Positions 23,390 through 63,197 of a stretch of 64,000 nucleotides of DNA are shown one piece after another. The stretch covers positions 1,440,001-1,504,000 of the forward strand of contig CAVTBR010000001.1 of assembly GCA_963733055.1 (NCBI GenBank), given 5' to 3'. Made by a program: the position numbers and the translations under genes. The notes under the pieces were generated by a model. The model ran no database searches. It saw nothing but the letters and a program-made list of their open reading frames with translations, and was not told where the DNA came from. Numbering within the stretch: the first letter of the stretch is position 1; every line of letters starts with the position of its first letter. The DNA comes from Candidatus Bathyarchaeota archaeon (GTDB lineage Archaea > Thermoproteota > Bathyarchaeia > 40CM-2-53-6).

Positions 23390-23414
23390 TGGTGCGGCTG
23401 TTCAGAATCGGACC
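23390..23414 (-). other. degenerate tRNA 3'-end (att-like) motif
   Basis: Minus strand reads GG-TCCGATT-CTGAA-CAGCCGC-A-CCA (T-loop + 5 + 7 + discriminator + CCA). Confidence 0.45.
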
Positions 23415-23520
23415 ACCGTCTCCTCCTTTGAAGGTGTGTGCGCACACCAAGGGATACTAAGGATACCACATTTTCTCAGCTTCACTAGCTTAATCTATAC
23501 TGCAAGCGCTAAATCATGGC

Positions 23521-25521
23521 ATGCGACTAGAATCAATTCGGACGCAAAACTACAAATCCATAATTGATTCAGGGACAGTTGAAATCGAGTCAGATATTAC
23601 AGCCCTCGTTGGAATGACCGGATCTGGGAAGACGTCATTTTTGGAGATGACCTCCGGGCTCGCTCCCGAAAAAGTCTTCCACGAGACTGAACTCCCCAAT
23701 GGATCGGATACAAAACAAAAATTTTCGAACGGCGAGTTAAGAGCCAGCGACATTCTTCAGCTATCTGCTATTTTTAGGATCGAGACTACGGATGGAATGC
23801 TGTTGCCGGAAGAATTTCGAGGCGTAGATAAAATTGAGATTAACCGGTACTTTGATGGACACTTCGAAATCAAGACAATGAAGGGTTCCATCAAGCAAGG
23901 ATCGATAACTCTAGAGCCTTTCAACACCAGAATTAGTACTATTCTTCAAAACACCAAGAACGACTTTACCAGCGCAGCCCCCAGGGTGCCGAATCTAGCA
24001 CAACAACAGGCCACATACTTCAAAGCAATTGATGATTTCTCTCAGACCAATCTAGCGAACCTCAAGGAACTTGATCTATCGTTGCAAACGGTGAGGAATG
24101 CAATGAACGGGATACCGAAGGATGGACCTTACCAGAACGAACTTAACCAAAGATTGTCTGAATTGCAAGCCCTACGCAACGAGATCTCTACCGCACTTGA
24201 ACAAGATCCCGTAAAAAAGCTACTAGATGTTATCCCAAAACCTGCCTACAAACGAGATGTCTTCGAGCTTGCTGACAAAATGTCATTAGACGAGTTTATC
24301 AGCAAACCAGAGAGTTCGAAGACTTTCCATTGTCTCGCCATAATTAGCGGTTTGAAGCCTAGTGGGGTGCAAAGAATTCGGAACGCTCCCAAGGCAGATC
24401 AGGAGGCTTACCTCCGAGTGATATCGAAGAGCCTGAGCGACCAGTTAAACAGTTTTTGGACCCAAGAGGAATATGATTTCCAAGTCGGTATAGGCGGTGA
24501 TCAACTGACTTTAACCGTAGCCGATCGAACAACACACAAGATTACTTCTGTTCTTGACGGAAGCGACGGATTCAAATGGTTTACATCATTCTTCTTAGAA
24601 ATGTCCGCTGACCTATCACTGAAATCGACTGCCGGCATCGTGCTGCTTGATAATCCCGCCACAAGTCTACACGACGAAGGTAAGGCGGATGTTCTGCGAT
24701 TCCTTAACAGCATGGCGGAGTCGGGAAAAATTCAGATTCTATACGCTACTCATGAGCGTCCGTTGGTAGACCCTTGGAGAATAGACCGCATTAGAGTTGT
24801 CGAAAAGAAAGAAGCAGGAACGAAGGTAGAAAGAGTAAGGGGCGACTCGAGATCGGATCTACTTGAGAGAGTAAGGCGAAATATAGGTTCACCCGCCAAG
24901 TACTCTTTGTTTGGGGCCCCCCGGACCGTCGCATTCGAAGGCATTAGCGACATGGATACCATCTCAGCCTTTAATGAATACTTGGAGCAACGAGGTTTGG
25001 CGCACTTACACAAGGATCTATTTTCAATTAATTGTATAAACGGAATAGACGGTGCTCCCGATTTTTGCAGGCTGTTCAAAACTCTAGGAATCGACTTTGT
25101 GATAGTGGTAGATAGCGGTCAGAAGACGCAGGACATCAGACAAAAGGTCCCTGACGAAGATTACAGCAGGCACTTCGTAGAGATCAAAGAGGTGATCGAC
25201 AGGGATGGGGACACCGAGGATCTCCTTGATCCGAACCTATACTATAGAGCGTTCAGGATGGCTTACGAGGACATCCTTGAACAAGTTCCAGAAGTTGAAG
25301 AACTAGATACGCTCGGTAGAAACCGGAAGACAGTAAACAAATACGACGATTGGTTCAGGAATAAGGGGAAGGAATTCAACAAGACCCTGGTCTCTCGACA
25401 AATGTTCAAGCTGCTTATGATGAATTCCAATCGCGATAAATCGGAGCAGGAACTCGTCGATAAATCAGTTGAAAATGTAGTCAAACTGTTTGATATCATA
25501 ACCGGAAGATTCGCACAGTAA
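23521..25521 (+). CDS. OLD-family ABC-ATPase/TOPRIM nuclease (GajA/OLD-like)
   Basis: IRTQNYKSI, Walker A GMTGSGKTS, GSDG, LLDNP..SLH, ATH, TOPRIM FEGISD..VVDSG..TEDLL. Confidence 0.8.
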   Translation: MRLESIRTQNYKSIIDSGTVEIESDITALVGMTGSGKTSFLEMTSGLAPEKVFHETELPNGSDTKQKFSNGELRASDILQLSAIFRIETTDGMLLPEEFRGVDKIEINRYFDGHFEIKTMKGSIKQGSITLEPFNTRISTILQNTKNDFTSAAPRVPNLAQQQATYFKAIDDFSQTNLANLKELDLSLQTVRNAMNGIPKDGPYQNELNQRLSELQALRNEISTALEQDPVKKLLDVIPKPAYKRDVFELADKMSLDEFISKPESSKTFHCLAIISGLKPSGVQRIRNAPKADQEAYLRVISKSLSDQLNSFWTQEEYDFQVGIGGDQLTLTVADRTTHKITSVLDGSDGFKWFTSFFLEMSADLSLKSTAGIVLLDNPATSLHDEGKADVLRFLNSMAESGKIQILYATHERPLVDPWRIDRIRVVEKKEAGTKVERVRGDSRSDLLERVRRNIGSPAKYSLFGAPRTVAFEGISDMDTISAFNEYLEQRGLAHLHKDLFSINCINGIDGAPDFCRLFKTLGIDFVIVVDSGQKTQDIRQKVPDEDYSRHFVEIKEVIDRDGDTEDLLDPNLYYRAFRMAYEDILEQVPEVEELDTLGRNRKTVNKYDDWFRNKGKEFNKTLVSRQMFKLLMMNSNRDKSEQELVDKSVENVVKLFDIITGRFAQ

Positions 25522-25578
25522 CCTCTGTTGTCGTGAAACCTTGCGTAGCTGGGACAGGCGAAATGTATGTGACATCAA

Positions 25579-25605
25579 TGGTGCTGGCAACTGAATTTGA
25601 ACCCG
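25579..25605 (-). other. degenerate tRNA 3'-end (att-like) motif
   Basis: Minus strand reads CGGG-TTCAAAT-TCAGT-TGCCAGC-A-CCA. Confidence 0.6.
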
Positions 25606-25871
25606 ATTTCTTGCGTGGTCTTCACTTCTGCACTCGAACTGCGCCCTACGATGGTGCGCATAGTCGTCGACCTATTACCGCGGGGAGATTAACCCAGACT
25701 ATTTGGACGATTTCGGAGTCTGGGTTAAGCCCATTTTCGAATCCCGTTCAACATGCTTGAGTAGAAAAACTGTAGCTTGATTAGTCTTCTCACGAGACTA
25801 GAAACGCGATACCACGTATGATTCTTATCTATGCAGATGCATGAGAACAACTAGATCTTTGAGGACTTAAC

Positions 25872-28250
25872 ATGTCGTCCCTATGGGACTATTTACTTCA
25901 AGCAATTTTGTCGTATGTCCCGCTAACTGTTGCTCTAATCACAATCCCATTTGCATATCAATACATTCGTGAGTTGCGCGCAAGAAAATCTCTCGAACAA
26001 GAAGTGAACCGTCTTAAATCGTTGGCAGAATTCAGCGAGCCAGCATCAACTCGAACTTATGGAAAACCGGTAGTGCCCTCTGTTCCTCGGGGGCTAGCTG
26101 TCGTATGTGCAGAGGGTGAATGTGTGCTATTCGCAGGCAGTAAGTTGGGTGCACTGGCAGGTTTGCCCACCTTGCGTGACGTGCTAGCACGAATTGTTGA
26201 GAGGGAGGAAGATGCCGGAGCAGAACGAGATTGGGATACCGTCAGACTGGCGCTCCAAACGGGCGACTTGATAGCGGCTGCTGAACTTATTTCAAACAGA
26301 GTCCCACGGAGTCGCGTCCTTCAAACAGTTAGAGACTTGTACGAACAGCGTGTGGCTGGAATACCGCCTACGTACAGGTCGCTCCAGCGGATTCCGTTTG
26401 CTGCTATTCTCACGACAGCGTGGGATAATCTCCTAGAGCAGGCGTTCCTCGACCGAAAGCCGGTCGTTCTTACAACCAGCGACGCTCCAACGTTCGCTCA
26501 ACTGCTTCGCCAGAATGAATTCATTATTCTGAAGTTGTATGGGGATCTGAAGAATGTGGAGAGTTTCAGTCTTTTTTCTGACGAATTTCGGCAGGGTATT
26601 CTCCGAAAGGAGCCACGGCTCCTTGAGTTCTTGAATTCAATCTGTCGATCCAAGACAATTCTGTTCCTCGGTGCGACATTACAGGAAGTTCGAGATTTTC
26701 TTACCAATTTCACGATTGAGGGGTCTGATCGGAGGCACTTCGCACTGGTTGAAGACCAAGCCGATATTGAAATGCAAAAGAGGCGTTTTCTCTCTAGATA
26801 CAATGTTCAACTCATGAGTTACCGGCCGTCGAGAGGTTCCCCGGAAGTCTCAGAGTTCATTGAGAAACTCGCTTTCGAGGTGCAAGCGAAATTCACGGAA
26901 ACCAAACCACGTGTCAAAATGCGTCCAGCCACACTGGATGAGCTTTCTCTGGAAAACATAGGGCCGTTTGAGAAACTCCAACTCAACCTAAACAGATCGT
27001 GGAATGTAATACTAGGGAATAACGGGTGTGGCAAATCTACATTGCTGAGGGCAATTGCTCTAGGGCTCTGCGGCAACGATGATAGGGCTAGGAGTGCGGC
27101 AGTGCAGCTGTTACGTTCAGGTGCGCAACGAGGATCAATTGAACTAGTCGTTGGAGGAGCAAAGTACAGGACAGAGCTGCTGCGCGAAGGCAACGAAGTA
27201 CGTGTCCGAAGTGACCGGCTGACTCCCCTCCAAACAGGAACGTGGCTTGTTCTCGGATTTCCTGCACTTCGCGGAGTTACAATCCAGGACCCCCGAGGAC
27301 CAACGGGTGATACGCCACGGAATCCAAATGCTGATGACGTGCTTCCGCTGGTTGGGGGAGTTCTTGACACTCGTCTTGATAGCCTCAAACAGTGGCTCGT
27401 GAATGTTCTGTTGCGTTCTGAAGCAGGGGAAGGAATTAGTCGATCCCAAGCTAGGACATACGCGAAATTACGAAGCGCATTCTTTGATCTCTTGAATGAA
27501 CTTACTCCTGGCATTAAGTTGGAGTTCAGCCGGGTTGACCGAAAATCGTGGCAAGTAATGGTCGAAACCATCGACGGAACTGTGCCCATTGACCTAGTAA
27601 GTCTAGGAACGAGCGCTATTATGAGTTGGATAGGGACATGGCTCCAGCGAGTGTACGAAATTTATCCTTCATCAGAAAACCCGACCATGGAACCGGCTCT
27701 TGTAATGATCGACGAGATTGATGCACATATGCATCCAGAGTGGCAGTATCACTTAGCTCCTAAACTAAAACAACTGTTCCCCAATTTGCAGGTTGTTGCA
27801 ACTACTCATTCACCGCTGATAGTTGGAAACCTCGAATCAAACGAAGTTTTCCGTCTCAGCAGGGAACAAACAAACCACCATCTCATACTGGAGAAAATGC
27901 CAGAATCTTTCGAAGGTTGGAGAGCGGATCAGATTCTGACAGGTCCAGCCTTCGGACTAGACACCACTATAGGACAGAGGACGGTGAAGCTAATTGATGA
28001 ATATTCGAGCTTACTTGGAAAGACCAAACGGTCTCCTCAAGAGGACGATAGAGTCAGAACTCTCGAATCGAAACTTGAGAAATCAATTCCGCTGCACCCT
28101 GAAACTGAGGAGGAGAGAGATATCGTCAGGATGATGGAGCAGTGGATGCTTCAGAGACTTCAGGCGGTGCCCGAGGAAAGAAGAAGAAAAATGCTGAAGG
28201 AAATCGAAAGATACCTGCCGCAGATTGGAACCGAAAAGGGGACAGGATGA
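25872..28250 (+). CDS. N-terminal TM + SIR2-like domain + PtuA-like ABC ATPase fusion
   Basis: TM residues ~5-30. SIR2-like CVLFAG..GLPT, ILTTAWD, LKLYGD, ILFLG. ATPase LENIGPF, GNNGCGKST, IDEIDAHMHPEWQ, TTHSP. Confidence 0.85.
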   Translation: MSSLWDYLLQAILSYVPLTVALITIPFAYQYIRELRARKSLEQEVNRLKSLAEFSEPASTRTYGKPVVPSVPRGLAVVCAEGECVLFAGSKLGALAGLPTLRDVLARIVEREEDAGAERDWDTVRLALQTGDLIAAAELISNRVPRSRVLQTVRDLYEQRVAGIPPTYRSLQRIPFAAILTTAWDNLLEQAFLDRKPVVLTTSDAPTFAQLLRQNEFIILKLYGDLKNVESFSLFSDEFRQGILRKEPRLLEFLNSICRSKTILFLGATLQEVRDFLTNFTIEGSDRRHFALVEDQADIEMQKRRFLSRYNVQLMSYRPSRGSPEVSEFIEKLAFEVQAKFTETKPRVKMRPATLDELSLENIGPFEKLQLNLNRSWNVILGNNGCGKSTLLRAIALGLCGNDDRARSAAVQLLRSGAQRGSIELVVGGAKYRTELLREGNEVRVRSDRLTPLQTGTWLVLGFPALRGVTIQDPRGPTGDTPRNPNADDVLPLVGGVLDTRLDSLKQWLVNVLLRSEAGEGISRSQARTYAKLRSAFFDLLNELTPGIKLEFSRVDRKSWQVMVETIDGTVPIDLVSLGTSAIMSWIGTWLQRVYEIYPSSENPTMEPALVMIDEIDAHMHPEWQYHLAPKLKQLFPNLQVVATTHSPLIVGNLESNEVFRLSREQTNHHLILEKMPESFEGWRADQILTGPAFGLDTTIGQRTVKLIDEYSSLLGKTKRSPQEDDRVRTLESKLEKSIPLHPETEEERDIVRMMEQWMLQRLQAVPEERRRKMLKEIERYLPQIGTEKGTG

Positions 28251-29071
28251 AGCACATATCTTTTGATCCGAACGCTCTAGTAGGCGCAGAACGTGATTGG
28301 TGGAGCAAGTGGGTTGAGAAAGCCAAAACAGCTAGATCACAGATACTCAAGGAAGCCAAAGCGGGCAAGATCCTTCATTACGACAATGAGGTTTGGAGCG
28401 AGCTCAAGTCTTGGCTGCTTGACAAGGTCTTCAATGGAAAGTGCGCCTACTGCGAATCAAAGTTCTCCGGGGTTTCGAGTTTCGGGGCTGCAGATCATTA
28501 CCGCCCGAAAGGGAAAGTGACTATCAGAGTTGCGGACAAGCAGGAGACGGTCATTTACCGCGGTCGTCCTCATCCGGGCTATTACTGGCTGGCTTACGAT
28601 TGGAGGAATATTCTCCCCGCATGCCCACCTTGCAACAGCGCGAAAGGGAAAGGAAGCCAGTTCCCCATTGCTGGAAGGTATGTGTTTGACCCTGGGAAAG
28701 GGCAAGATCCTGATGCTTTGGATAGAATAGAGAAACCTTTGCTATTGCATCCATGTCGAGATGATCCAGGCGAATACATCAGATTTGGAATCAAAGGTGC
28801 GGTAGCTGCGATCGATGGAAATGCAAGAGGCGATCAATCTATCTTGGTCTACAATCTGAGCCGCGATCGGCTCAGACAGAAAAGACAGCGTGCGCAAGAG
28901 GACGCGAGGCGCGCGTTTCTGTTCGCGGTAGAAAGCGGCACTTTGAAGAAGATGCTCGAGCCATATGAGCAGGGCGTCGAAGAGTACTCAGTCGCAGCTT
29001 TGGATTTTCTTCGCAACCATGTTTTCGAGAACATCGCTCTCGCGCTGCGACCGACTGAGAAAGAAACTTGA
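28247..29071 (+). CDS. PtuB-like HNH endonuclease
   Basis: KCAYCE, DHYRPK, YYWLAYDWRNILPACPPCN..K..FP, PLLLHP..DDP; ATGA overlap with the ATPase stop. Confidence 0.85.
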   Translation: MKHISFDPNALVGAERDWWSKWVEKAKTARSQILKEAKAGKILHYDNEVWSELKSWLLDKVFNGKCAYCESKFSGVSSFGAADHYRPKGKVTIRVADKQETVIYRGRPHPGYYWLAYDWRNILPACPPCNSAKGKGSQFPIAGRYVFDPGKGQDPDALDRIEKPLLLHPCRDDPGEYIRFGIKGAVAAIDGNARGDQSILVYNLSRDRLRQKRQRAQEDARRAFLFAVESGTLKKMLEPYEQGVEEYSVAALDFLRNHVFENIALALRPTEKET

Positions 29072-29270
29072 AAAGGACACTTGGCATATCACAACACACG
29101 TTAGCAACGGGACCGACGGTCAAGGTTGCCCATTGCATACGTTTACTCTTGCTGCTTCAATGTGACCGCTTTGCGAGGCCGGTCTCATTCCGAGATGTAT
29201 CTCCGGATCCTCCTGCCGTCTCATAACATCACGTAACCACGATCTCCGAAGGAGACTAAGGTATGTGGGC

Positions 29271-29297
29271 TGGTGATGCGGGCGACGGAATTTGAAC
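29271..29297 (-). other. degenerate tRNA 3'-end (att-like) motif
   Basis: Minus strand reads G-TTCAAAT-TCCGT-CGCCCGC-A-TCACCA; 16/17 identical to the motif at 39621-39637. Confidence 0.6.
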
Positions 29298-29493
29298 AAG
29301 CCAGGTGACAGTCTCTCCGCTTAGATTTCTCTATGATTATCAGCCGGTGACATTTGAATATCGAAAATGCGCTTTAATGGACACATTGCTCATATGGACA
29401 ACTATTTTTCGTCATATACTTCAGAGTCGGAAATAGTGGGGGTTCTACGTCTTCACTGTCTCAATTGACAACCTTGCTGAGTCTTCTTGCTCC

Positions 29494-31102
29494 TTATTCT
29501 GGAGGAATTTCCTTGAAAGCCAATGACAGATCGAGGCCTCTGTGTTTATTGTAGACTTTTGCCACGTAGAAGAGTACTAGGCCGGAGAGACCAACCCCGG
29601 CTACCGTCGCCATCGAAGCAGCTGAGTTCACTCCATATGCAGAATAGGCACCATACGCGTATGCGAGGAGGCCGAGGAAGATCACTGAGAGTATGCCGGC
29701 CAATGTGATTACCGGTACCCCAGCAATTTTGCCCTTGTGAGGAGACTGATCGAACAGACTTTTCCTGCGGTAGGGGAAAGCAACGCCGCTGATGGCAACG
29801 AGAATGAACGACATAATGATCTGTCCAAACACGAAACTTAGACCCAACAAAATCCCACCCACATAAGTGTACAGCAGAAGGACGACCTCAGCTCCAACAC
29901 ACGAGACCGCAATCGCGAACAAGGGCGTGTTCGTTCTGTCATTCACCTTTGAGAGGGCCATTGGTAAAGTGCGATCAAAGGACATCGCGAGGAACCATCT
30001 TGAGATTCCAAGAATGCACAGCGGTAGTTCAGCGAACAAGTAGAGGGTTACACCAACTCCGATTATGAGCATGACCCACGGAGCGTTGCTCACCATTACG
30101 CTGGCCAAAGTATTGTAGAATGGTGGTACGGGTAAGGTGTACGAGCTAGGCGCGTTATAGTAAGCGTAGCTTACCGCGTTCACGAAATCAACCGTACCGC
30201 TTCCGAGGTAGGATACTACCGCCGCGATCATCAAGACACCCGCGATTCCTAATGCGCCCAGAAGCCCGAACATAGAGTTCTTAGAAGCGGACTTAATTTC
30301 TCCGCTAACGACCTGCTGAAGCGAAATGTATGTGAACGCATAGGCTGCAAGCGGAACGATACCTAGTGTATTTGACCAGCTAAAGCCGGGGTTCGGTTCG
30401 AAACCTGACTTGCGCACCGTGTTGATGATTGTGTGGTAATAGTCAGGGTCCTTCGTGAACGGCAGACTAAAACGCGTTGAAACGAGAAATGAACACATCA
30501 ACCGGCGTAGAGACAAATACAACAACGATGATGAGAATACTAAGCAACCCCAAAACAACACCGATCCGGAGAACCAGAAAAGACCATTTTGTTCTCCACG
30601 CTGTAAGCAAACCTGCGGCAATCAGCAGTATTGTGCCAACTCCCGCCACCCAGTTTGGATCGAGCGCAGCTGTAGCCATACTCGAGAGCACTGGCGTGTT
30701 TGTTACTGCACCCATTACTCCGAAGCTTTCCGAAAATGCGATTGTCAAGACCCAGTTAGCACCGACGCCAAGGTAAAAGATGTACCAGATCGAATTTGTC
30801 CAACCATCCACGAACCCAAGCCATGGATGAACAACTCGGCTTACGAAGACATAATCGCCTCCAGAACGAGGCATCGCAGCAGACAGCATCGCGTACACGC
30901 ATGCAAGTGGAACAGTAGCAAGAGCAGTGATGAGTGTCGCCATTCCCATGTCGCCGCCTGGGAACGACCACGCGAAAGCAGTAACGTAAAAGACGCCAAG
31001 CACAATGTTGAAGTTGACCATATTGAGGGACATCGCGTCCCAAACACTTAGGTTTCGAACGAGCCCGGTTGCTTCACGAACGAAAATTCTGGGATTAGCC
31101 AA
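29494..31102 (-). CDS. APC-family amino acid permease, 1-nt frameshift near 30470
   Basis: [32 protein letters not shown]. An extra T in a T4 run splits the ORF. Confidence 0.85.
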
Positions 31103-31175
31103 ACCGAATCTTATCGCAACAGCTCCTGATTCTCAGTATATATGGCAACTCATAGGTGACATACAACCCACGAGT

Positions 31176-32435
31176 CTATGAGTGATTTGCAAGTCTTAGC
31201 ACAGTCTGAAGCAGGACGTTGGCTCCATTCTCCAGATGCTTCGGCCCAGTGGATTCGGTGGGAGAATGGCTGACCCCTTCATGGCTTGGTACGAAGATCA
31301 TCCCGGTTTCCGTTACCCTGGCCATGTTCTGACAGTCATGTCCAGCTCCGCTAGGCATACGCCTGTGACTAAGCCTCAACGATTCAGCAGCCCTGGTCAC
31401 AGTCGCGACGACGTTCTCTGACATCAATGCTGGCCTAGAGAAACTCACAGCGCCCACCCGAACCTGCAATCGATGAACTCTGCCAATTCTGCGAGCCGCG
31501 CGCCCAATTCGGTTCTGCAGTAAACGGACTTTATCACTCGTTTGGGCCCGAACGTCTATACCAAGCACCACCCAATTCGGAATCACGTTTGAAGCATTCG
31601 GCAATACCCTGACAGACCCAACTGTTACAACTGAACCTCGAGTAGCCCGCACGATCTGGTTTGTCGTGGCTATGAACTCAGCTGCGCCCAAGAGCGCATC
31701 GCGGCGCATACTCATCGGTGTAGTCCCCGCGTGTCCCGCAACACCGTGGATTGTCACTTTTAACTCCGCTAATCCGACAATTTTGGTGACCACCCCAATC
31801 TCGGTGTGCGCGAGCTCCAAAGTTGGCCCCTGTTCGATGTGGGCCTCTACGTAAGACTTGATCGCGGTTCTTGGATTTCGATGATAAGGTCGAAGTTCCG
31901 CCGGATTAAACCCTGCGCTCTTCAACGCCTGTTTGAAAGTCATACCCTGTCCGTCCATCAACCGGTGGGCCGCTTGGGGAACAAGCGTGCCCGAGAACCC
32001 TAAGCTACCTGTGAATGAAGGAAACCTTACCCCCTCTTCTTCCGTGAACATGACAACCTCCAGAGGACGCTCAAGCGCAATCCCTTCCTGGTTAATTGTC
32101 TTCGCGACCTCGATAGCGGCAAGCACGCCGTAGGCACCGTCTAAGTGACCGCCATTTGGTACGGTATCAATGTGAGACCCGCATACAACCGCGGCCTTCT
32201 TTCCCGAACGGGCTTCAAGGCGACCGATTATGTTCGCGAAAGCGTCGATCGAGATTTGCATGCCCGAATTGACCAGTAGCTTAGTAACGTAGGCTCGGGC
32301 CTTTAGATCCGATTCTGAAAACGTGAACCTTGAGATTCCACCACTCGGCGTACGCCCGATCTTGGAAAGACTCTCGATTGAATGTCTTAGACGACCTCCA
32401 TTGACCCGTAACGACGTGAATGGTTCCAACTTCAC
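31176..32435 (-). CDS. M20 Zn hydrolase (allantoate amidohydrolase / N-carbamoyl-amino acid hydrolase)
   Basis: GSHIDTV, DGAYGV, EEEGVRF, EAHIEQG, GHAGTTPM, SGAGHD, SHSPTE. Confidence 0.93.
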   Translation of the reverse strand: MKLEPFTSLRVNGGRLRHSIESLSKIGRTPSGGISRFTFSESDLKARAYVTKLLVNSGMQISIDAFANIIGRLEARSGKKAAVVCGSHIDTVPNGGHLDGAYGVLAAIEVAKTINQEGIALERPLEVVMFTEEEGVRFPSFTGSLGFSGTLVPQAAHRLMDGQGMTFKQALKSAGFNPAELRPYHRNPRTAIKSYVEAHIEQGPTLELAHTEIGVVTKIVGLAELKVTIHGVAGHAGTTPMSMRRDALLGAAEFIATTNQIVRATRGSVVTVGSVRVLPNASNVIPNWVVLGIDVRAQTSDKVRLLQNRIGRAARRIGRVHRLQVRVGAVSFSRPALMSENVVATVTRAAESLRLSHRRMPSGAGHDCQNMARVTETGMIFVPSHEGVSHSPTESTGPKHLENGANVLLQTVLRLANHS

Positions 32436-32526
32436 TCACCGCAAATCAAGCACGTTTCCGGCCTTTCTAGATTTTCATTGACTACCTTGAGAACCATTAA
32501 ATAGAATTTCGAAACTTGGCATCTTC

Positions 32527-33846
32527 ATGGACCTTGATTTTTCCGGCATAGAGCTTATCGACTTTCATGCACATGCTCTTCGGGAGTTCAATGTTTCGCA
32601 ATGGTTGGAATCGTTCGCACTAACAATGCTCGAGTCTGCGATTCCTCAAGAAGCCCTCAAGACACTGATGATTGCGAAGGGTGACCTCTTCGGTGTCAAG
32701 ATTACTCCAGAAAGACAACGAAGCTGCATCAAGAAAGCCGCTGAGTATGAAAGGACTCTCAACATCGTCGCTCTTCTTGAGAGACAGAGACAGGAAATCA
32801 CCCGACTATCGTCATTCGATGATCTTCGACTATACTTGGCCCACGTCTACGATTGTCAACCCGTTATCTCTGAATTAGATAAGAAGATAGACGAGGCTCT
32901 TCATCGAGATCCCACCCAGTACGTAGATTCAGTGCTGGAACGGGAAAACATCAAATTGGCTCTTCTGGACTTGATAGGTTCCACGGAGCTAGAGCCTCCC
33001 TTTCCAAGAGAGAAGTTCGGTTTAGTGTTTTGCCCGACCAAGAACCTACTGAACCCTCTCTGGGCTGCAAGACACGGGGCGCGTACCTTAGGCGACGCAG
33101 TCGAGCTATGCGAGAAGAAGATAGAAGAGCTTCAACGGATCAGATTCAGCGGTTTCAAATTTGACATAGCATATTTCCGAACTCTGGAGATAGAAAATAT
33201 ACGAACGGCAACCGCCAACAAGGCCTTCAGGGCGCTCCGTAGAAGAAAACCGAGCGGTATGGACCTATGGGAGACGGTTCCTACCTACGCAAGAGGTTCT
33301 GACAGACGCAATCTAGCTGCCTTCCAGGATTACATGATTAGATACCTAATGTCAAGAGCGGGAGAGCTTAAGGTTCATGCCCAATTTCACACGGGATGTG
33401 GTGGACCTGGGCCGCATCCTGACCTACTGAACGCAAATCCTGCGCTACTCTATGATTTCTTGACGGATGAGCAGATTAAAGGTACGAACGTCGTCCTACT
33501 TCACACCGGTTATCCGTACGTCGAGGAAACTGCGCTCATGGCAGCGCAATTCGTAAACGTGTACGTGGATATTTCGATCGGGCTACTATTTCACGGAGCC
33601 TACGAAAGATCTCTTAGAACCATTCTGGAATTTGCTCCCCCTCAGAAAGTGATATTCGGAACTGATGCGGTGGAATTTGCAGAACTATTCGGTTACCATA
33701 GCTGGTTCATCAAGGAGACATTGAGAAGACTGCTAGAGGAGTTTACCCAAACCCATGGGTGGAGTTCAGACAAGTGCATGGAAGTCGCTGGGATGATTCT
33801 GAACAAGAACGCGAAAGCGCTGGGAGCCAGAAAGACCGCCGGTTAG
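32527..33846 (+). CDS. amidohydrolase (TIM-barrel, amidohydrolase_2-like)
   Basis: IDFHAH, QFHTG, LLHTGYP, VYVDIS, FGTDA. Confidence 0.85.
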   Translation: MDLDFSGIELIDFHAHALREFNVSQWLESFALTMLESAIPQEALKTLMIAKGDLFGVKITPERQRSCIKKAAEYERTLNIVALLERQRQEITRLSSFDDLRLYLAHVYDCQPVISELDKKIDEALHRDPTQYVDSVLERENIKLALLDLIGSTELEPPFPREKFGLVFCPTKNLLNPLWAARHGARTLGDAVELCEKKIEELQRIRFSGFKFDIAYFRTLEIENIRTATANKAFRALRRRKPSGMDLWETVPTYARGSDRRNLAAFQDYMIRYLMSRAGELKVHAQFHTGCGGPGPHPDLLNANPALLYDFLTDEQIKGTNVVLLHTGYPYVEETALMAAQFVNVYVDISIGLLFHGAYERSLRTILEFAPPQKVIFGTDAVEFAELFGYHSWFIKETLRRLLEEFTQTHGWSSDKCMEVAGMILNKNAKALGARKTAG

Positions 33847-33871
33847 ATGTCTCTGAGAAGTTGGCCGGCGC

Positions 33872-35245
33872 ATGAACACGACTGAGGAATTGGCACGTTA
33901 CGTTAGGGACACAGACTACCAAGACCTCCCGAAGGAAGCAGTCACGAAGGCGAAAACTCTCATTCTTGATTCTCTAGGCTGCGCTTTGGGCGGATGCAAG
34001 ACCGAGATTGCTACTTCAATTCTGGGTGCAATCGCGGACTCGCATGGAGGAGAAGCCACGCTAATTGGAGGTGATAGGAAGTATCCATGCAGAGACGCCG
34101 CTTTTGCGAACGCGACGCTGATCAATGCGTTGGATTTTGACGATGACAATTGGGTAGGTCATCCGTCAGCAACCATACTTCCGGCGGCGATGGCTGTCGC
34201 GGAACGTGTGGGTGCCTCTGGGCGAGACCTCCTAACCTCCTTCGTCCTCGCCTTCGAGGTTGTAACTCGTATCGGTTGGGCCATCTGGCCTTCTAAGGCT
34301 AGATATGACAAGGTTTGGGGTGTTGGGACTCACCAAGTGTTCGGGGCGGTCTCGGCGGCGGCTAAGATTCTAGCCTTGAATGAGTTTGAGAGCTTGAATG
34401 CCTTTGGAATTGCCGGAGCGGTTGCGCCTCTCCCTTCGGCCATGAAATGGGGTTTTGGAAATCGACCTCTAACTTGGGTGAAGGATAGCGTTGCGTATGC
34501 AACAGTTGCGGGCCTTAATGGCGCACTCCTGGCAAAGCAGGGGTTTCTAGGGTGCAGAGACATTCTAGATGGGGAAACAGGTTTCTGGATAATGGCTGGT
34601 TCGGACAGATGCGACTTCGGCCGAATGGTTCGAGGATTGAGAAGTGAGTATCTCATTATGAAGGACTCGATAAAACCTTGGCCGGCGTGCAGATTCATTC
34701 ACGCAACTCTTGATGCGGTCAGTGAAATCGTAAAACAACATAGCTTGAAGCCTGAAGAGATCGAAGAGGTTCGAGTGCGATCCATCTGGGACCTAGCCCA
34801 GTTCTTCGTAGACTACCAACCTTTCGCGATCGTTGACGCGCAGTTCAGTGTCCCATACACAATAGCTATGGTCATCATGGGCGAGAAAGCAGGCGCGAAT
34901 TGGTTCGACAAATCTAGCCTACGGAGTGCAAAATTGTTAGCACTTGCTAAAAGAGTGGTAGTCGAAACCGACCAAAAGGCGGATGACCTCTATCACAGCG
35001 ACGTACCAAAAATAACGTCGAACGTTACGATAACCACCAAGAACGGAAACGAATTTGGCGCATCGATTGAGTTCGCGAAGGGAGAGCCAGAGAACCCACT
35101 TAGCCCCGACGAAGTGGAGGAGAAATTCATGAGGCTCGCCACAGTCACGGTTGATCACCACCGTGCTAAGGATATTTTCGATATTGTAGACGACCTGGAT
35201 CGACTCAAGAAAATAACCGACCTCACAGAGCTCTTGCGTAAGTAG
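33872..35245 (+). CDS. MmgE/PrpD family protein
   Basis: ILDSLGCALGG, ALDFDD, GHPSA, KPWPAC, AQFSVPY, KGEPENP. Confidence 0.92.
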   Translation: MNTTEELARYVRDTDYQDLPKEAVTKAKTLILDSLGCALGGCKTEIATSILGAIADSHGGEATLIGGDRKYPCRDAAFANATLINALDFDDDNWVGHPSATILPAAMAVAERVGASGRDLLTSFVLAFEVVTRIGWAIWPSKARYDKVWGVGTHQVFGAVSAAAKILALNEFESLNAFGIAGAVAPLPSAMKWGFGNRPLTWVKDSVAYATVAGLNGALLAKQGFLGCRDILDGETGFWIMAGSDRCDFGRMVRGLRSEYLIMKDSIKPWPACRFIHATLDAVSEIVKQHSLKPEEIEEVRVRSIWDLAQFFVDYQPFAIVDAQFSVPYTIAMVIMGEKAGANWFDKSSLRSAKLLALAKRVVVETDQKADDLYHSDVPKITSNVTITTKNGNEFGASIEFAKGEPENPLSPDEVEEKFMRLATVTVDHHRAKDIFDIVDDLDRLKKITDLTELLRK

Positions 35246-35297
35246 AAACGAAATTCTTAGACAGGTGGAAAATTGGGCGGATTCCATCAAACACTGG

Positions 35298-36485: not shown

Positions 36486-36570
36486 TCGAAACTCATCCTC
36501 GTATTCCCACGTGGGAAACTCCCAATAGACATCTCAGCTCAGCGAAATTCGTTCAAATCTCTTGGAGAGG

Positions 36571-37614: not shown

Positions 37615-37771
37615 CGCTAGTCAGCCAATGAAATTAACTGGGGCTTATAATTCGCCATAAGAGGCTTCTCATATGGCCCGAAATTCTTGTCTTCTCAATT
37701 CAGCTAGGAATACCGGTAAGTTTTCTTTACATTAGTCATACTAAGAACATAAACTGAAAAGCGTAACGGCA

Positions 37772-38563: not shown

Positions 38564-38701
38564 CGGCCTTGCTCCTCGCTGAGTGCTTTCTCACGCGGGA
38601 CCTCAAGTTCAAGATCGGACATCATACTTGAATATGAGTAGATGCGGTTGTAAGTCTTCCTACCTACACCTCCTTTTATCGAAACTTCGCGTCTGTATGA
38701 A

Positions 38702-39534: not shown

Positions 39535-39617
39535 GCGTCATTCGTTCCGATCTATAGGTGTGCTCGCACCCTCAGAATTGAACCGTCGCACGGCGCAAAA
39601 GTGCGTGGTGCGTCTAG

Positions 39618-39641
39618 TAGTGCGGGCAACGGAATTTCGAA
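39618..39641 (-). other. degenerate tRNA 3'-end (att-like) motif
   Basis: Minus strand reads TTCGAAAT-TCCGT-TGCCCGC-A-CTA. Confidence 0.55.
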
Positions 39642-39797: not shown

Positions 39798-39802
39798 AGA
39801 TA

Positions 39803-54854: not shown

Positions 54855-56010
54855 ATGCTGCGTAAGCATTTTGTTTTGATGGTTGCTACATTATCTTTTG
54901 TCATGCTTGGTCTGGGGCTGTTTGGTTATCCGCCAATATCCAGGTACGTCATCCTGGATCTCAATCTCTCGCATACTGAGTCTGGGTATATCACTTCGGT
55001 CTTCGCGCTCACGTTCGCTTTGATGCAGGTGCCTGGCGGGTACTTGGCTGATAGGTTTGGGGGAGCCAAGACTCTCATGGTCTTCGCGGCGGTGGTGGGT
55101 GTGTCTCCCTTCATCTTCATCGTAGGGGATAGTTTTGTGATGGCCCTGGTCTTTCGTGCTCTGGCTGGCGGTGCGTGTGGTGTAACGTTTCCTTCCGCAG
55201 TTCGTGTCCTCTCATCCTGGTTCTCGGAGAGGGAGGTGGGTTCGGCTATGAGCGTTTTTGGGTTGGGTTATGGGATGTCCCAGATCGTTTCTTCCGCGTT
55301 CTTACCCTTACTGATTCTGGGCGCAGGATTGGAGGCCTCCCCTCATCTTTACCGCGCTGTTTTCTCTTCTCGTGATGGCGTTAGCCGTCTTTCCTGCTCG
55401 GTGGTCTTCTCCGATTGAGTCTTCGGTAAGTGTGAAGGTTGATGTTAGGGGGTTATTTACGCGTAATATGGTCGCTCTGGTTCTTCCTAATTTTGCCTCG
55501 CTCGCAGTAGTGGTGGGTATCTTTGCGTGGACGCCAGCATTTCTTACTTCGATTTTACATCTGTCGGATGAGTATGCTGGAATCATTCTGGGGTCGATCG
55601 GTGTGGCTAACATGTTGGGCGCCTATGCGGGCGGCTTGGCGAATAAGTGGTTGGGAAAGCGTCGGACCATTGCCCTGTCCATGATCCTAATGACGGGTTT
55701 CGCTGTGTTGTTGGGTACGGCAAATTCAGGTTTGGTTGCCGCGGTGTGGATTTCAGGCATTGGTTTCACGAGCATGTTGTATTTCGCAGCGGTCTTTGGC
55801 TTGATTCCTTACGCAGCGAAGCAGGGTCGTTCAGTAGCCGGCATAAGTTTTGGTGTCTTCAACATGTTGAGCAACATCGGGACCTTTGTCTCGCCAATTA
55901 TCGGGGGGTATATCTTAGACTCGACCGGGAATTTCTTCTTAGGATTTGCCTCAATAGGAAGCATCGGGGTTCTCGGAGTGCTCGGAGCAATAGTTCTCCG
56001 CACAGACTAG
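54855..56010 (+). CDS. MFS transporter, frameshift near 55326
   Basis: GGYLADRFG motif A; about 12 TM helices across two overlapping ORFs. Confidence 0.85.
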
Positions 56011-56036: not shown

Positions 56037-56621
56037 CTACGTAGTCTTGTCTGATTCGTATGTTATCAGGGTCTTTTCTTCAAGTGTGTCTTGCAGTTTT
56101 GAGATAGCTCTGTGAACCTCCGCCTCTTTCTTGGCGCCGGTACAAACGAGTTTTCCGCTTGAGAAGATTAGTATGACTGTTTTGGGGTCGTCCATTCGGT
56201 AGATAAGGCCGGGGAATTGTTCGGGTTCATACATGGTGCGTTTCAGTGAGTAGGTTGCCTTTTCCAAATCAATATGGCCGCCTAAACCTACCGACGCTAC
56301 CATATTCTGAATCTGAATCTCAGGCTTACCCAGAATGACGATCCCGTTACGGTTGAGCTCGTCCACAACCTTCATGACGGCCTTGCGAGCCTGCCGCTCC
56401 GACTTCGCCCCCGTGCAGACCATTTTACCCGAGCTGAAGATCAAGGTGGTGGCCTTCGGCTTCTTCAATCGATATACTAAACCAGGAAATTGTTCAGGCC
56501 GATACTCAACGCCAGGGAACACGCGCACAATAGAGTTCAGGTCAATATTCTGATGGAGCGTACCTGTCGCGACCACATTCTCGATGTTGATGAACGTTCT
56601 CCTTCCGACGCGAGATGCCAC
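56037..56621 (-). CDS. tbp: TATA-box binding protein
   Basis: Two repeats: IENVVA..YRPEQFPGL..LIFSSGKMVCTGAK and IQNMVA..YEPEQFPGL..LIFSSGKLVCTGAK. Confidence 0.98.
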   Translation of the reverse strand: MASRVGRRTFINIENVVATGTLHQNIDLNSIVRVFPGVEYRPEQFPGLVYRLKKPKATTLIFSSGKMVCTGAKSERQARKAVMKVVDELNRNGIVILGKPEIQIQNMVASVGLGGHIDLEKATYSLKRTMYEPEQFPGLIYRMDDPKTVILIFSSGKLVCTGAKKEAEVHRAISKLQDTLEEKTLITYESDKTT

Positions 56622-56837: not shown

Positions 56838-56857
56838 TTCCCGTCGTCGTGGTCTAA

Positions 56858-56882
56858 TGGCGCGGGGACCTGAAACCGAACC
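56858..56882 (-). other. degenerate tRNA 3'-end (att-like) motif
   Basis: Minus strand reads GG-TTCGGTT-TCAGG-TCCCCGC-G-CCA. Confidence 0.5.
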
Positions 56883-56948
56883 ATCCTCTTTGAGGCGTTT
56901 TAATGCTGACTTCCGGTTAGCCCATATTGGCGGAGTGGTATACGACCG

Positions 56949-57556: not shown

Positions 57557-57567
57557 GGCGTCATCTA

Positions 57568-58470: not shown

Positions 58471-58631
58471 TTAGGTCAAATCGTCAAAATTGTGTGTGTG
58501 GTATAGTTGGTGCGCGTACACACACTTCGCCGCGCCCCTTCGTGGCGAAATGGTAGGATGTGTTTGCTCATTTTATGGTAGTATAGAAGTATAGGATACT
58601 GGTCGCTACAGTATTTCATGAATGCGCGGCG

Positions 58632-60277: not shown

Positions 60278-61084
60278 TTGCAAAACGGAACCACCGACTT
60301 GGCCCCGGGTCGTTTTAATTCTTCTGAATTCGGTCCCGGCAAGAACCTCGCGCAATTCGTACTCAAACTTAGGAATGAACCTGGAATTCTAGAATCGCTA
60401 TCGGCGATCGCTACAAGAAACAGGGTCAACGTCCTCTCCGGCTCCCACACCGCACCCCCAAATTCAGACCACGCTTCCTGGAGCTTCTTCGCCGACATGA
60501 CCAATTCGAAACAGTCAGCTGAAGGGCTTGCGAAGGAATTCTCTTCGCTCCCAGGTACGTTGGATGTGAGATTCAAAACTGCAACGACGCTTATCGTCGA
60601 CACGTTTCATTTCCCCCTCTATGCTGGCGGCCAACAGGTCATGGTATTGGCGACTCGTTCACTCGCGGCCATATTCCAACGAGTAAAGGACTTGCTGGGA
60701 GCAGGGCCGGCTACGAGCGTATTATTGCATCAGATTGGCCAAGCAACCGGAAAGACAAATTACGAAATAATGCTGTCCAAGCTCGGTCGAGAGAATTTGT
60801 TGGGTTCCACTTCAGAGGTCGCGGGCCTATGGTCCGCGGCAGGCTGGGGAAGGCAACGAATACTAGACCTGGACTTAGAGGGGATGACGGCAAGAATCGA
60901 GATTCAAGGTAACTTCGAATGCAGCTCATACGGAAACGGATCCGAAACCCCACAAAGCCAATTCGTACGTGGATGCCTCGACGGGTATTGGTCAGCCTTC
61001 TTCGGGAAGAGAATCAATGTGGAGGAAACGCGATGCGTTGCGAAAGGTGACGCAGCCTGTGAGTTCCTCCTCACCCCCACATGA
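60278..61084 (+). CDS. ACT-like + V4R domain protein
   Basis: LRNEPGIL ACT-like start; GWG, FEC, FVRGCLDG, EETRCVAKGDAACEF. Confidence 0.85.
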   Translation: MQNGTTDLAPGRFNSSEFGPGKNLAQFVLKLRNEPGILESLSAIATRNRVNVLSGSHTAPPNSDHASWSFFADMTNSKQSAEGLAKEFSSLPGTLDVRFKTATTLIVDTFHFPLYAGGQQVMVLATRSLAAIFQRVKDLLGAGPATSVLLHQIGQATGKTNYEIMLSKLGRENLLGSTSEVAGLWSAAGWGRQRILDLDLEGMTARIEIQGNFECSSYGNGSETPQSQFVRGCLDGYWSAFFGKRINVEETRCVAKGDAACEFLLTPT

Positions 61085-61110
61085 CCCGGGCATCTGCATC
61101 GGGGTGTGCG

Positions 61111-61497: not shown

Positions 61498-62083
61498 CTT
61501 CTCGCCTAATCTCTTCTAGCCTTCGCTTCATTTCATCGAAGCTTCTTTTGCTGGTGCCAGTCAAGGACCCTATCGCAGACTCTAGGAGAACTACTTGTGG
61601 CAGTCTTGCTTCTCGGTATGGAAGGGGTTGGCGTCTCTTCAGTCTGTGTAGCCTGGCTTCAAGGTTTTCTTTCTTGAGTTCGAATTCGTTGGCCAATCCC
61701 TTATCGAGGGTCACCATCTTCTCACAGCCGACGAAAGTCCCTGACAGGTTTGTTCCGAAGGTTGCATATGCGAGCACTTTCGCGTCCTCACCAGTCAGTG
61801 CGGTGGCTTTCCTTAAGATTCTGAGCCACTCGTTGAATGGATTTGAACGATACAGCGTGTCACTGTTGGCGATGATTGCCTTCGAGATTTGCGGATTTCT
61901 CAGAATTCTCGTGAGTATGTTGTAGGTTTCGAGGGTAACGTAGACTTCAACGTTCTGGGACTTTGCGGTTGCGAGAATCGATACAACTAACTCTTGCTCA
62001 TTTGTAAGTGGGTGGCCTAAATTTGATCTGATGATGGATTCAAACCATCGACGCACGATGTTCTTATCGACGAGAACCCGCAA
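61490..62083 (-). CDS. PIN-like protein with an antitoxin-like C-terminal tail
   Basis: VLVDKN, EDAKVLAYA, VTLD; ends IGSLTG..FDEMKRRLEEIRREDA. Confidence 0.65.
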   Translation of the reverse strand: MRVLVDKNIVRRWFESIIRSNLGHPLTNEQELVVSILATAKSQNVEVYVTLETYNILTRILRNPQISKAIIANSDTLYRSNPFNEWLRILRKATALTGEDAKVLAYATFGTNLSGTFVGCEKMVTLDKGLANEFELKKENLEARLHRLKRRQPLPYREARLPQVVLLESAIGSLTGTSKRSFDEMKRRLEEIRREDA

Positions 62084-62375
62084 TCGTTTTCACGACGACT
62101 TCGGATTTCTTAGAGTAGGCTTCTGCCTCTCGGTACCAGTTCTCCCACAACTCTGTTCGGTCTCTTTCAGACATGGCCATGTACCTCGATACGGTGAGGT
62201 CTCTTGTCAAGGGTTCCTCTCCCGTAAGGACGCGATGTGTCATTTCTAGCCGGGTGAAAGCAAGCATCAGGCTCCTCAAAGTCTCGCTGGGTTTCAACCC
62301 CAGGGTCTCACACTGCTTCTCGAAAGCCTTCTTCAACTTCGGTGCTACTCGTACGACGACCTGACTCTGCGTCAA
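62064..62375 (-). CDS. ribbon-helix-helix antitoxin-like protein
   Basis: VVVRVAPKLKKAFEKQCETLGLKPSETLRSLM. Confidence 0.75.
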   Translation of the reverse strand: MTQSQVVVRVAPKLKKAFEKQCETLGLKPSETLRSLMLAFTRLEMTHRVLTGEEPLTRDLTVSRYMAMSERDRTELWENWYREAEAYSKKSEVVVKTIAGSRR

Positions 62376-62469
62376 CTCCCAGATTCACGATTGCAATGCA
62401 AAGGCAATGCAACCTTAAAAATCTGACCCACGGTGAGACGCCGTCGCATTATCGAAGTTCGTACTACGG

Positions 62470-63006
62470 TTAGGCGTGGTTCTTGAGTTTCTGCATGTAG
62501 TGTTCTCGGAATTTTCTGACTTTCGGCGCGATAACCATTTGGCAGTAAGGTTGGCGGGGGTTGTTCTCGAAGTAATCATGATGATAGGTTTCGGCTCGGT
62601 AGAAGGCCTGGAGCGGTTGAATTTGTGTCACTATGGGCGCGTTCCATAGTTTTGCCGCCGTCACCTCCGCCACGACTCTTTGTGCTGTGGACTTCTGTTG
62701 GTCGCTGTGGTAGAAGATTGCTGACCGGTACTGGGTCCCCGCATCTGCTCCCTGTCTGTTCAGGGTGGTTGGGTCGTGGACTGTGAAGAAGATTTTCAGA
62801 AGTTCTTCGTAGGAGATTATTGCCGGATCGAAGGTTACCTGAACCGCTTCCGCGTGCCCCGTTCTACCAGTGCAGACATGCTCATAGGTGGGGTTTGGCA
62901 CGGTACCTCCCGCGTACCCCGGCTCAACCTTCTCTACACCCTTCAACTCCTTGAATACCGCTTCCGTGCACCAGAAACATCCCCCAGCGAACGTAGCAAC
63001 CTCCAT
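62470..63006 (-). CDS. msrA: peptide methionine sulfoxide reductase A
   Basis: GGCFWC, TGHAE, HDPTTLNRQG, QYRS, AETYH. Confidence 0.97.
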   Translation of the reverse strand: MEVATFAGGCFWCTEAVFKELKGVEKVEPGYAGGTVPNPTYEHVCTGRTGHAEAVQVTFDPAIISYEELLKIFFTVHDPTTLNRQGADAGTQYRSAIFYHSDQQKSTAQRVVAEVTAAKLWNAPIVTQIQPLQAFYRAETYHHDYFENNPRQPYCQMVIAPKVRKFREHYMQKLKNHA

Positions 63007-63172
63007 GACCCAAATCACACGCCCCTATTGCTCAAGCCGCCAAATAAGCGAAGGATTGAACAGATCAAGCGAAACGTAGAATCCAATTCAGCAAGTTTGG
63101 CTGTTCTAACGAATCTCTCTGTCTGGGTGGCGGAATCGTGCTCCCTCTCGCCTGCCGAATATTGTGTGAATA

Positions 63173-63197
63173 TTGTGTGGCCGGGGGATTTGGACCC
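63173..63197 (-). other. degenerate tRNA 3'-end (att-like) motif
   Basis: Minus strand reads GGG-TCCAAAT-CCCCC-GGCCAC-ACAA, one base short of canonical spacing. Confidence 0.45.

Follow-up and report, generated by a model that had tools for sequence, protein, structure and literature searches.

Why is a stretch of archaeal chromosome without a single tRNA gene punctuated by sequences that look like the 3′ ends of tRNAs? The question is raised by 64,000 nucleotides of a Candidatus Bathyarchaeota genome (hereafter, the window), which correspond to positions 1440001–1504000 of contig C1 in the host genome G000 (2.88 Mb in three contigs, C1–C3; 50% G+C; 96% complete). A first-pass annotation, made from the sequence alone, listed eight motifs with the spacing of a tRNA 3′ end (T-loop, five bases, seven bases, discriminator, CCA-like end) and read them as traces of repeated cassette capture at tRNA-derived sites, giving an integron-like array. 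Six of the eight (23390, 25579, 29271, 39618, 39803 and 56858) are true derivatives of tRNA 3′ halves. They are members, one of them loosely, of a repeat family at whose copies the homology between related genomes breaks off. Most likely, as far as comparison of the sequences can tell, the family represents tRNA-derived attachment sites that have turned into a two-armed repeat, conserved and present in many copies within one archaeal order. The Bathyarchaeia are an abundant, uncultured group, and the ways in which genes enter their genomes are poorly understood.

Six of the motifs are fragments of tRNA 3′ halves

The motif sequences listed in the first pass are all present where they had been placed. 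In G000, the CCA end is genome-encoded in every recognisable tRNA gene, the T-arms of these genes are G+C-rich and fully paired, and their T-loop is the same as that of the motifs. A position weight matrix (PWM) spanning the 23 nt from T-loop to CCA was built from 26 distinct host tRNA 3′ ends, and the genome and five simulated sequences (third-order Markov model, Markov-3) were scanned with it. At a threshold of 12 bits the genome contains 95 hits, as opposed to 22.0 ± 4.2 in the simulations; the corresponding numbers are 74 and 7.6 at 14 bits, and 62 and 0.4 at 18 bits. Four hits of at least 12 bits lie in the window (about 0.5 expected by chance). Such hits thus far exceed the simulated background. 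A separate, window-only scan with a profile of the repeat family (iterated nhmmer, see below) recovers the same six sites (Table 1). In 14 relatives the family profile also matches the genuine tRNA-Gly(TCC) gene, over the segment that begins at the variable loop and ends with the CCA (model positions 22–70), in agreement with a derivation from tRNA 3′ halves. The remaining two motifs do not share this support: site 63173 is weak and site 38591 is unsupported, both being undetected in the window-only scan. In a BLAST search of the genome, 63173 matches only one fragment (C1:817913; 24 nt, 92%, E 0.035).

As had been claimed, the window contains no full tRNA: ARAGORN, run with and without introns, and Rfam find no tRNA gene in it, and no Rfam family matches anywhere in it. 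Relaxed ARAGORN settings return low-quality calls only. The two strands of the T-stem pair as poorly as the first pass described, in 2–3 of 5 positions at the window sites compared to mostly 5 in true tRNAs. The best acceptor pairing within 400 nt upstream amounts to 5–6 of 7 positions (mostly 7 in true tRNAs), and no window site has a 7-bp acceptor partner within that distance. Intron-containing or split tRNA genes were considered and ruled out by the missing acceptor partner, the unpaired T-stem and the lack of an Rfam match; with so few T-stem pairs and no acceptor partner, the sites are fragments and not intron-containing genes. The tRNA genes of G000 are themselves very intron-rich: ARAGORN reports seven in plain mode and 33 when introns are allowed, and the Rfam tRNA model gives 20 matches, 13 of them above the cut-off.

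A composite repeat with two arms

Five of the window sites, and loosely also 39803, belong to one composite repeat family. The core of the unit is a T-loop heptamer (TTCAAAT-like). The right arm consists of five variable bases, an acceptor strand of the yGCCCGC type, an A, the CCA, seven bases (often yTAGACC) and a CA-run. The left arm is made up of a CA-run, a T-rich stretch or T-run, and AACGAC-type repeats that resemble the variable loop and the 5′ T-stem strand of a tRNA. The left arm is often preceded by an inverted copy of the CCA arm and, since such a copy is found further left in many members, the full unit of ~100–110 bp has inverted ends. In the unit at 23378–23450 these outer inverted repeats extend to ~23374–23470. 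The first-pass observation that three of the motifs converge on one sequence is borne out, as 25579, 29271 and 39618 all match a fourth fragment at C1:814604 in a BLAST search of the genome. For 25579, the match is 24 nt long; for 29271, it covers 21 nt at 95% identity and is placed at C1:814607.

Iterated nhmmer finds 37 copies of the family in G000 at E ≤ 0.05. Five of these are located in the window, where 0.8 would be expected if copies were evenly spread. A loose regular expression for the CCA arm matches the genome 41 times, compared to 2–9 times in five simulations. The 37 copies comprise 13 full units, nine consisting of left arm and core, nine consisting of core and right arm, and six of other form. 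Among 73 copies in loci of relatives, the same classes number 9, 21, 30 and 13; these loci had been selected for their units, and genuine tRNA genes are among them. Coverage of the profile peaks over the T-arm, which is present in 97–99 of 110 hits. Full, left-only and right-only copies that overlap at the T-loop form the pattern expected of a two-armed site and its hybrid products about a shared core. Units are also found directly 3′ of the true tRNA-Arg(TCT) and tRNA-Gly(TCC) genes of G000.

Unit lengths vary, half-copies are frequent, and inverted arms are present in some copies only. A full unit on the plus strand, i.e. opposite to the minus-strand copies of the window, is found at C1:1506409–1506476, 2.4 kb past the right end of the window. 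The repeat is not described in the titles and abstracts turned up by literature searches.

Homology breaks at the T-loop and at the CA-run

Close relatives found via a window protein are metagenome-assembled genomes (MAGs) of Bathyarchaeia/Bathyarchaeota from soil and peat; 12 genomes of the same genus served as relatives in DNA-level comparisons. The unit at 56858 is in place in six of eight relatives, and homology ends either at its T-loop or after its CA-run. Of the eight, three diverge within 2 nt after the T-loop. In another three the right arm is retained and the similarity stops after the CA-run; a second unit follows in tandem in one of these. Of the last two, one equals the window and one is without the unit. 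A comparable change of context is seen at a true tRNA gene. The 3′ end of tRNA-Gly(TCC) is identical in 14 relatives, and the DNA that follows the CCA differs among them, except for three similar pairs. A CA-run with a unit follows this gene only in G000 and G029.

A third case is the block of the DEAD-box helicase. In G000, G022, G024 and G026, its beginning is marked by the CA-run of a unit; these units differ from one another in construction and in their neighbours. In other relatives, the block has another neighbour, which they share. The arm remnant at 58492–58518 is the left edge of the helicase block that is common to G022, G024 and G026. The far side of the block carries arm remnants in two relatives and, in one, a tRNA 3′ end that faces the block. 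The right edge in the window (60104), where G000 departs from the majority, was considered as a further unit and rejected: it contains only a promoter with a T-loop-like word. A separate feature of this block is a 90-nt stretch (58519–58610) between the CA-run and the helicase stop, which holds a perfect G+C hairpin with a TTCG loop and is shared only by G022, G024 and G026.

A joint inside the window is formed by the V4R gene fragment between the 39618 and 39803 units. This piece, which the first pass had taken for an integrase remnant, is assigned to V4R by Pfam and is ~88–90% identical to the 3′ part of an intact V4R gene (60910–61075). When read on the minus strand, it follows the intact gene as far as a TTCGAA stretch, from which it passes into the right arm of the 39618 unit. 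Because the agreement ends at TTCGAA and the right arm continues from there, recombination appears to have joined a unit to a T-loop-like word within a protein-coding gene. At its other end, the fragment stops seven bases short of the 39803 unit. Together with the breaks within 2 nt of the T-loop in three relatives at 56858, the V4R joint would place the crossover at the T-loop. The first pass had proposed that breakpoints in relatives might coincide with the motifs, and they do so exactly, at the T-loop or at the CA-run. Thin contigs of one public soil DNA run (24% of sampled words) contain no excision joint, which counts neither way; no RNA run is listed as containing these words.

Proposed serial integration at tRNA-derived sites

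The explanation that we favour, and to which we give about an even chance, is that the units are attachment (att)-type joints produced by serial integration of small islands, with subsequent decay and recombination between sites. It is preferred because three observations fit site-specific recombination: half-units share the T-loop as their overlap, homology in relatives ends no more than two bases from it, and the V4R joint has the same position. The repeat would serve, or would have served, as an attachment-type site with crossover in or beside the T-loop, as is the case for tyrosine integrases that target tRNAs. Small islands would have entered such sites in succession, first the one with the OLD gene, then that with the SIR2-ATPase and HNH genes, and then the metabolic block with TrmB and ParB. 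Each entry would have left hybrid joints with one arm only. The enzymes would have acted in trans, from elements that are since gone. Decay of the islands would then account for the split ParB, permease and MFS genes, and recombination between copies of the repeat may also have shuffled the conserved genes nearby. The enzyme, the direction and order of events and any present activity of the sites are parts of this scheme that we infer. Well founded, in contrast, are the origin from tRNA, the surplus over chance, the family with three forms that overlap at the T-loop, and the coincidence of breakpoints with units.

Crossover at the T-loop and tandem islands at tRNA genes have precedents in the Islander paper (PMC4383910) and in phage Ms6 (PMC1762012). 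As in Islander-type islands, which tyrosine integrases make at tRNA genes and which come with displaced tRNA 3′ fragments and in tandem arrays, tRNA 3′ fragments of the same orientation bound accessory DNA, several in succession; in the window, these are the five minus-strand family copies at 23.4, 25.6, 29.3, 39.6 and 56.9 kb. The crossover, too, would be located at the T-loop or in the T/acceptor region. Unlike Islander-type islands, the window lacks both an intact cognate tRNA and an integrase, the fragments carry conserved arms of non-tRNA sequence (CA-run and inverted CCA arm), and the ~40 copies are conserved across the order irrespective of integrase content. Archaeal integrases of the SSV and pTN3 types, which capture genes and rearrange chromosomes, are the subject of three further sources (PMC7253208, PMC5495485, PMC8371274). 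These systems share with the window the presence of archaeal integrase-less remnants bounded by tRNA-derived sites and a shuffling of gene order by recombination between dispersed sites. In SSV-type capture, the att site is located inside a split integrase gene, whereas the split gene fragment found here is V4R, and there are no integrase halves in the window.

Several results weigh against serial integration. The match to the host tRNA set that the first pass had suggested as a check is missing: no host tRNA 5′ end is complementary to the yGCCCGC acceptor strand, with matches in coding regions only, in a set of ~33 host tRNA genes that is incomplete. The bases around the T-loop are asymmetric and the 3′ T-stem is hypervariable, which is unlike the core of a working tyrosine recombinase site. 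The joints at 25579 and 29271 are without the left arm that simple serial integration predicts. The window also lacks an integrase or integrase remnant. G000 has six matches to PF00589, the nearest at C1:1427721–1428194, but none falls in the window, and no PF00589 integrase lies beside any of the family copies inspected.

The distribution of the repeat in the order points in the same direction. It was followed with an arm pattern of 16 specified bases, with one mismatch allowed and the reversed pattern as a control, in 105 genomes, and it does not track PF00589 across them. The 98% complete genome G026 contains 20 arm copies but lacks any integrase match at E ≤ 1e-8. In genus g10, which belongs to the same family as the host, integrases are found in 14 of 22 genomes and the arm pattern in one of 22; in the genus of the host, PF00589 integrases are present in 15 of 22 genomes. 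Finally, all 16 specified bases of the arm recur unchanged in several families of the order, and this suggests selection or ongoing spread and not decaying scars. Three rival explanations keep some weight because no recombinase is linked to or co-distributed with the repeat, the arm is conserved throughout the order, and the units have no polarity.

In favour of serial integration, classical small islands with PF00589 integrases and intact tRNA 3′-end duplicates are present elsewhere in G000 (C1:1423416–1428530, C3:150471–154850, C3:503170/527886/546744 and C2:408335–409309). In two of these the duplicate pairs are found at C1:1423416/1428505 and C3:150471/154828. One integrase ORF (open reading frame) of G000 overlaps a tRNA-Ser-like fragment and looks SSV-like.

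Distribution of the repeat and alternative explanations

The arm pattern is found in 52 of the 105 genomes, and its reversed form in none. It is present in 21 of 22 genomes of the genus of G000, with up to 38 copies each, in 10 of 10 genomes of genus g13, and in other families of the order. In G000, 30 of 34 arm copies are intergenic, though 86% of the genome is ORF. The arm copies lie 10–130 nt from gene ends. Each side of the 30 intergenic copies gives 18 stop-facing and 12 start-facing cases, i.e. 36 stops and 24 starts together. The units show no polarity or strand relation to the neighbouring genes.

These properties resemble those of repetitive extragenic palindromes (REP/REPIN) and miniature inverted-repeat transposable elements (MITEs), which are likewise short, extragenic, partly palindromic and numerous, point in either direction and form inverted doublets. 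It is conceivable, if somewhat doubtful, that the family is a dispersed tRNA-derived extragenic repeat of this type that spreads or maintains itself independently, in which case the breaks would result from ectopic recombination and the blocks would not have been inserted at the units. The high copy number, the independence from integrase content and the intergenic location without polarity are all in line with such a repeat, as is the region C2:518–531 kb, where copies fill almost all gaps between genes. There are also inverted doublets that have a terminal stem, and two of five full copies folded as DNA clearly beat shuffled sequences (z −2.1 and −3.4). However, the other three do not stand out (z −0.5 to −1.0), so that the hairpin is only partly borne out. 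Unlike genomes with REP/REPIN and RAYT proteins or with MITEs, G000 has no Y1/RAYT-type transposase (PF01797, 0 matches; control genomes positive) and no TnpB-type protein. It also lacks a serine resolvase and Cas1 (PF01867, 0 matches), and the absence of a Cas1-type integrase likewise sets the repeat apart from casposons. No target-site duplications are seen in the flanks of the full copies inspected. Half-copies end at the T-loop and are followed by unique DNA, whereas exchange between repeats would give the rest of a repeat, and the V4R joint used a T-loop-like heptamer and no repeat copy.

The array at C2:518000–531000 calls for comparison with integrons. Here, the CCA-arm motif occurs in nearly every intergenic gap, in either orientation, and alternates with unrelated genes that encode a beta-helix protein, an FAD oxidoreductase, a glyoxalase-like protein and KaiC-like proteins. 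No tyrosine recombinase is found next to the array, in a search that included no IntI-specific model. Integrons and integrase-less attC clusters have been reported, including some in Archaea (PMC9668308; no mention of Bathyarchaeota by term count). The repeat has in common with attC arrays a site length of ~60–110 bp, a location between unrelated genes, the imperfect palindromes of some copies and the absence of an adjacent integrase. It differs from them in the lack of attC boxes and of cassette polarity, in a hairpin confined to two of five full copies, in blocks of several genes, in the lack of a linked IntI-like gene, and in a sequence that is clearly derived from tRNA. The analogy with integrons therefore fails in the integrase, in the structure of the site and in polarity. 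Of the earlier proposal, the first half, repeated capture at tRNA-derived sites, is plausible, but an integron-like array with machinery of its own is not demonstrated.

Two versions of the analogy may be distinguished. In the first, an order-wide family of tRNA-half recombination sites without a linked integrase would punctuate single genes and small defence or metabolic modules as an archaeal counterpart of attC arrays, and KaiC-like, OLD and SIR2-HNH genes would move between sites and genomes via an unrecognised recombinase that reads the T-loop core and the CCA/CA-run arms; we regard this as unlikely. The second, which we consider a shade more unlikely, is a dedicated, integron-analogous cassette platform in which each gene or module comes with a unit as its recombination site, capture, excision and reordering again being the work of an unrecognised recombinase. 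Arrays with one unit per intergenic gap and unrelated cargo would suit a platform, and so would the single-gene blocks (helicase, UbiA, 123-aa ORF) that occur in varied contexts in relatives with their edges at units. On the other hand, the orientation of units relative to the putative cassettes is inconsistent, no recombinase is linked to them by position or phyletic pattern, and no Rfam family matches in the window. The alignment of copies contains no conserved attC-like boxes, and a hairpin is only occasional. The units do separate functional modules, yet the blocks between those of the window are 2–17 kb long and hold several genes in both orientations.

Two multi-copy gene families bear on the platform in opposite ways. 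The KaiC-like family (PF06745) lacks the usual P-loop and has 25 matches in G000 (e.g. C1:518205–518933, C1:538371–539057 and C2:525068–525763) and up to 22 in relatives. Ten of 22 checked copies have a unit or arm within 200 nt, nine of them at the 3′ end, compared to 38 of 5000 random intervals. KaiC-like proteins and PF00589 are the two protein families whose distribution was compared with that of the repeat. KaiC-like paralogues occur in the same share of genomes, 14 of 22, in the genus of G000 and in g10, a phyletic pattern unlike that of the repeat. In the case of TBP, 19 paralogue copies in 18 loci (56 kb) of ten relatives give three unit hits, and in two of the 19 a unit lies within ~1.2 kb. 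The idea that every shuffled gene is a cassette was rejected for TBP on account of these nearly unit-free copies.

A further unit that would suit a platform was found in a viral sequence collection. Contig L081 carries a full unit (9205–9315) with inverted CCA arm, T-loop and CA-run. On one side of it lies a block that encodes ParB, a radical-SAM protein and a peptidase, on the other a type IIG restriction-modification methylase. No integrase is found among the ten ORFs scanned on this contig. The T-loop-plus-acceptor pattern has 20 matches in the collection, of which L081 alone passed a tighter filter and was read. The arm pattern has six matches in it, and these look like chance because none had a unit.

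The weakest alternative, which we consider improbable, is that the repeat is a selected host element and no recombination site, acting either as a tRNA-like signal for the processing or stabilisation of RNA or, at gene ends, as a site to which a protein binds: the retention of the 16 specified arm bases across genera and families (against none for the reversed control), the proximity to gene ends with a surplus of stops over starts, and the unit kept in place upstream of the 123-aa ORF in six of eight relatives would agree with it, but the T-arm is unpaired and shows no compensatory changes, there is no strand relation to adjacent genes, half-copies and broken copies are common, no Rfam family matches, and g10, in the same family, is nearly without the pattern.

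If the units are recombination joints, as serial integration holds, they provide a sequence tag with which islands, defence modules and rearrangements could be mapped in hundreds of integrase-less MAGs, and their conservation throughout the order would point to a recombination system that awaits discovery. Should they be no more than a selfish or structural repeat, they would still explain many synteny breaks, and they come with a warning for annotation, as tRNA-like 3′ ends in these genomes would mostly not be genes.

Sites and genes of the window

The units, fragments and gene blocks of the window are listed in Table 1. Three of the copies had not been listed in the first pass, namely the two CCA-arm remnants and the degenerate T-loop in tandem with the 39618 unit.

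Table 1. Repeat units, fragments and intervening gene blocks, in window coordinates. PWM and window-only nhmmer columns give the position of the hit followed by its score or E-value.
Feature	Position	Strand	PWM (bits)	nhmmer, window only (E)	Remarks
CCA-arm remnant (CCA, yTAGACC-like 7 nt, CA-run)	20528–20552	−			Read by eye; ~110 nt after SufB/D stop
CARDB protein and unknown genes	20.6–23.4 kb				
Full unit (left arm, degenerate T-loop, right arm with CCA)	23378–23450	−	23390(−), 12.0	23450–23378, 9e-12	nhmmer model 4–77; terminal stem z −2.1
OLD-like ATPase-TOPRIM protein	23521–25521				
Core and right arm (T-loop, 5 nt, acceptor strand, A, CCA)	25565–25612	−	25579(−), 14.0	25612–25565, 9e-8	After OLD-like nuclease gene; nhmmer model 32–79
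SIR2-ATPase (SIR2 + AAA_21), then HNH protein	25872–29071				
Core and right arm	29269–29301	−	29274(−), 21.1	29301–29269, 4e-5	After SIR2-ATPase and HNH genes; nhmmer model 38–70
Split amino-acid permease, M20 peptidase, amidohydrolase, PrpD, saccharopine dehydrogenase, arginine-deiminase-like gene, TrmB, split ParB	29.5–39.5 kb				
Motif without support	38591		below 8	undetected	
Second degenerate T-loop unit, tandem	39562–39588	−			~40 nt 3′ of 39618 unit; weak nhmmer E 1.3
Core and right arm, T-loop with one extra A	39608–39637	−	39618(−), 9.0; one extra base in loop	39637–39608, 2.5e-4	T-loop is the joint with V4R fragment
V4R gene fragment, 165 bp	39636–39800	+			Pfam V4R, BLAST; between two outward-pointing units
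Core and right arm, GCTCGC subtype (T-loop, 5 nt, acceptor strand, G, CCA), without CA-run	39802–39828	+	39805(+), 19.3	39802–39828(+), 0.015	
CdvB, two CHAT proteases, ThiF, terminase large-subunit remnant, split MFS gene, TBP	40–56.8 kb				
Unit upstream of conserved 123-aa ORF, facing TBP gene	56852–56903	−	56858(−), 9.0	56903–56852, 1e-4	
CCA-arm remnant (GT-run, CCA arm, CA-run)	58492–58518	−			Between UbiA and DEAD-box helicase; 2 mismatches to arm pattern
Weak T-arm-like fragment, without CCA, not a family member	63173–63197	−	below 8	undetected	Between msrA and PIN gene

The motifs had been placed at block boundaries, and the comparison agrees: they lie between functional blocks, in a stretch that the 12 same-genus genomes lack at the DNA level. 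All 12 match window positions 20001–40000 in the first ~420 bases (to ~20422), which are the end of SufB/D (Pfam), the last gene for which each of them has a DNA match. The only other sizeable match in this interval is the arginine-deiminase-like gene, found in two of the 12 and at other loci; the rest are few and under 200 bases. Window positions 40–54.8 kb have almost no DNA match in these genomes. The MFS, TBP, 123-aa ORF, UbiA and DEAD-box helicase genes are present in relatives, but scattered. Four relatives each have a different continuation downstream of SufB/D. In G001, SufB/D is followed by genes that are located ~41 kb away and reversed in G000 (C1:1416477–1460420). This arrangement suggests an inversion between G001 and G000, the right end of which would fall at ~20.4 kb of the window, beside the arm remnant.

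The OLD, HNH, ParB, msrA and PIN genes named in the first pass are correctly called, and the window also contains the archaeal genes TBP, TrmB and CdvB. Three genes are split into two ORFs each, encoding the amino-acid permease (29494–31102), ParB (38702–39534) and the MFS transporter (54855–56010), which suggests decay. A public contig has one extra G at 38953, inside the ParB split. Two defence-type modules stand side by side at 23521–29071, the OLD-like gene being followed by the SIR2-ATPase/HNH pair. The segment 43575–54092 encodes two CHAT proteases, a ThiF-family protein and a T4-type terminase large subunit, with no other recognisable virion genes, and is possibly a decayed provirus or a defence cluster. 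The TBP gene of the window (56037–56621) belongs to a family that is multi-copy in the genus; as many as six DNA matches (75–91% identity) are present in a single relative.

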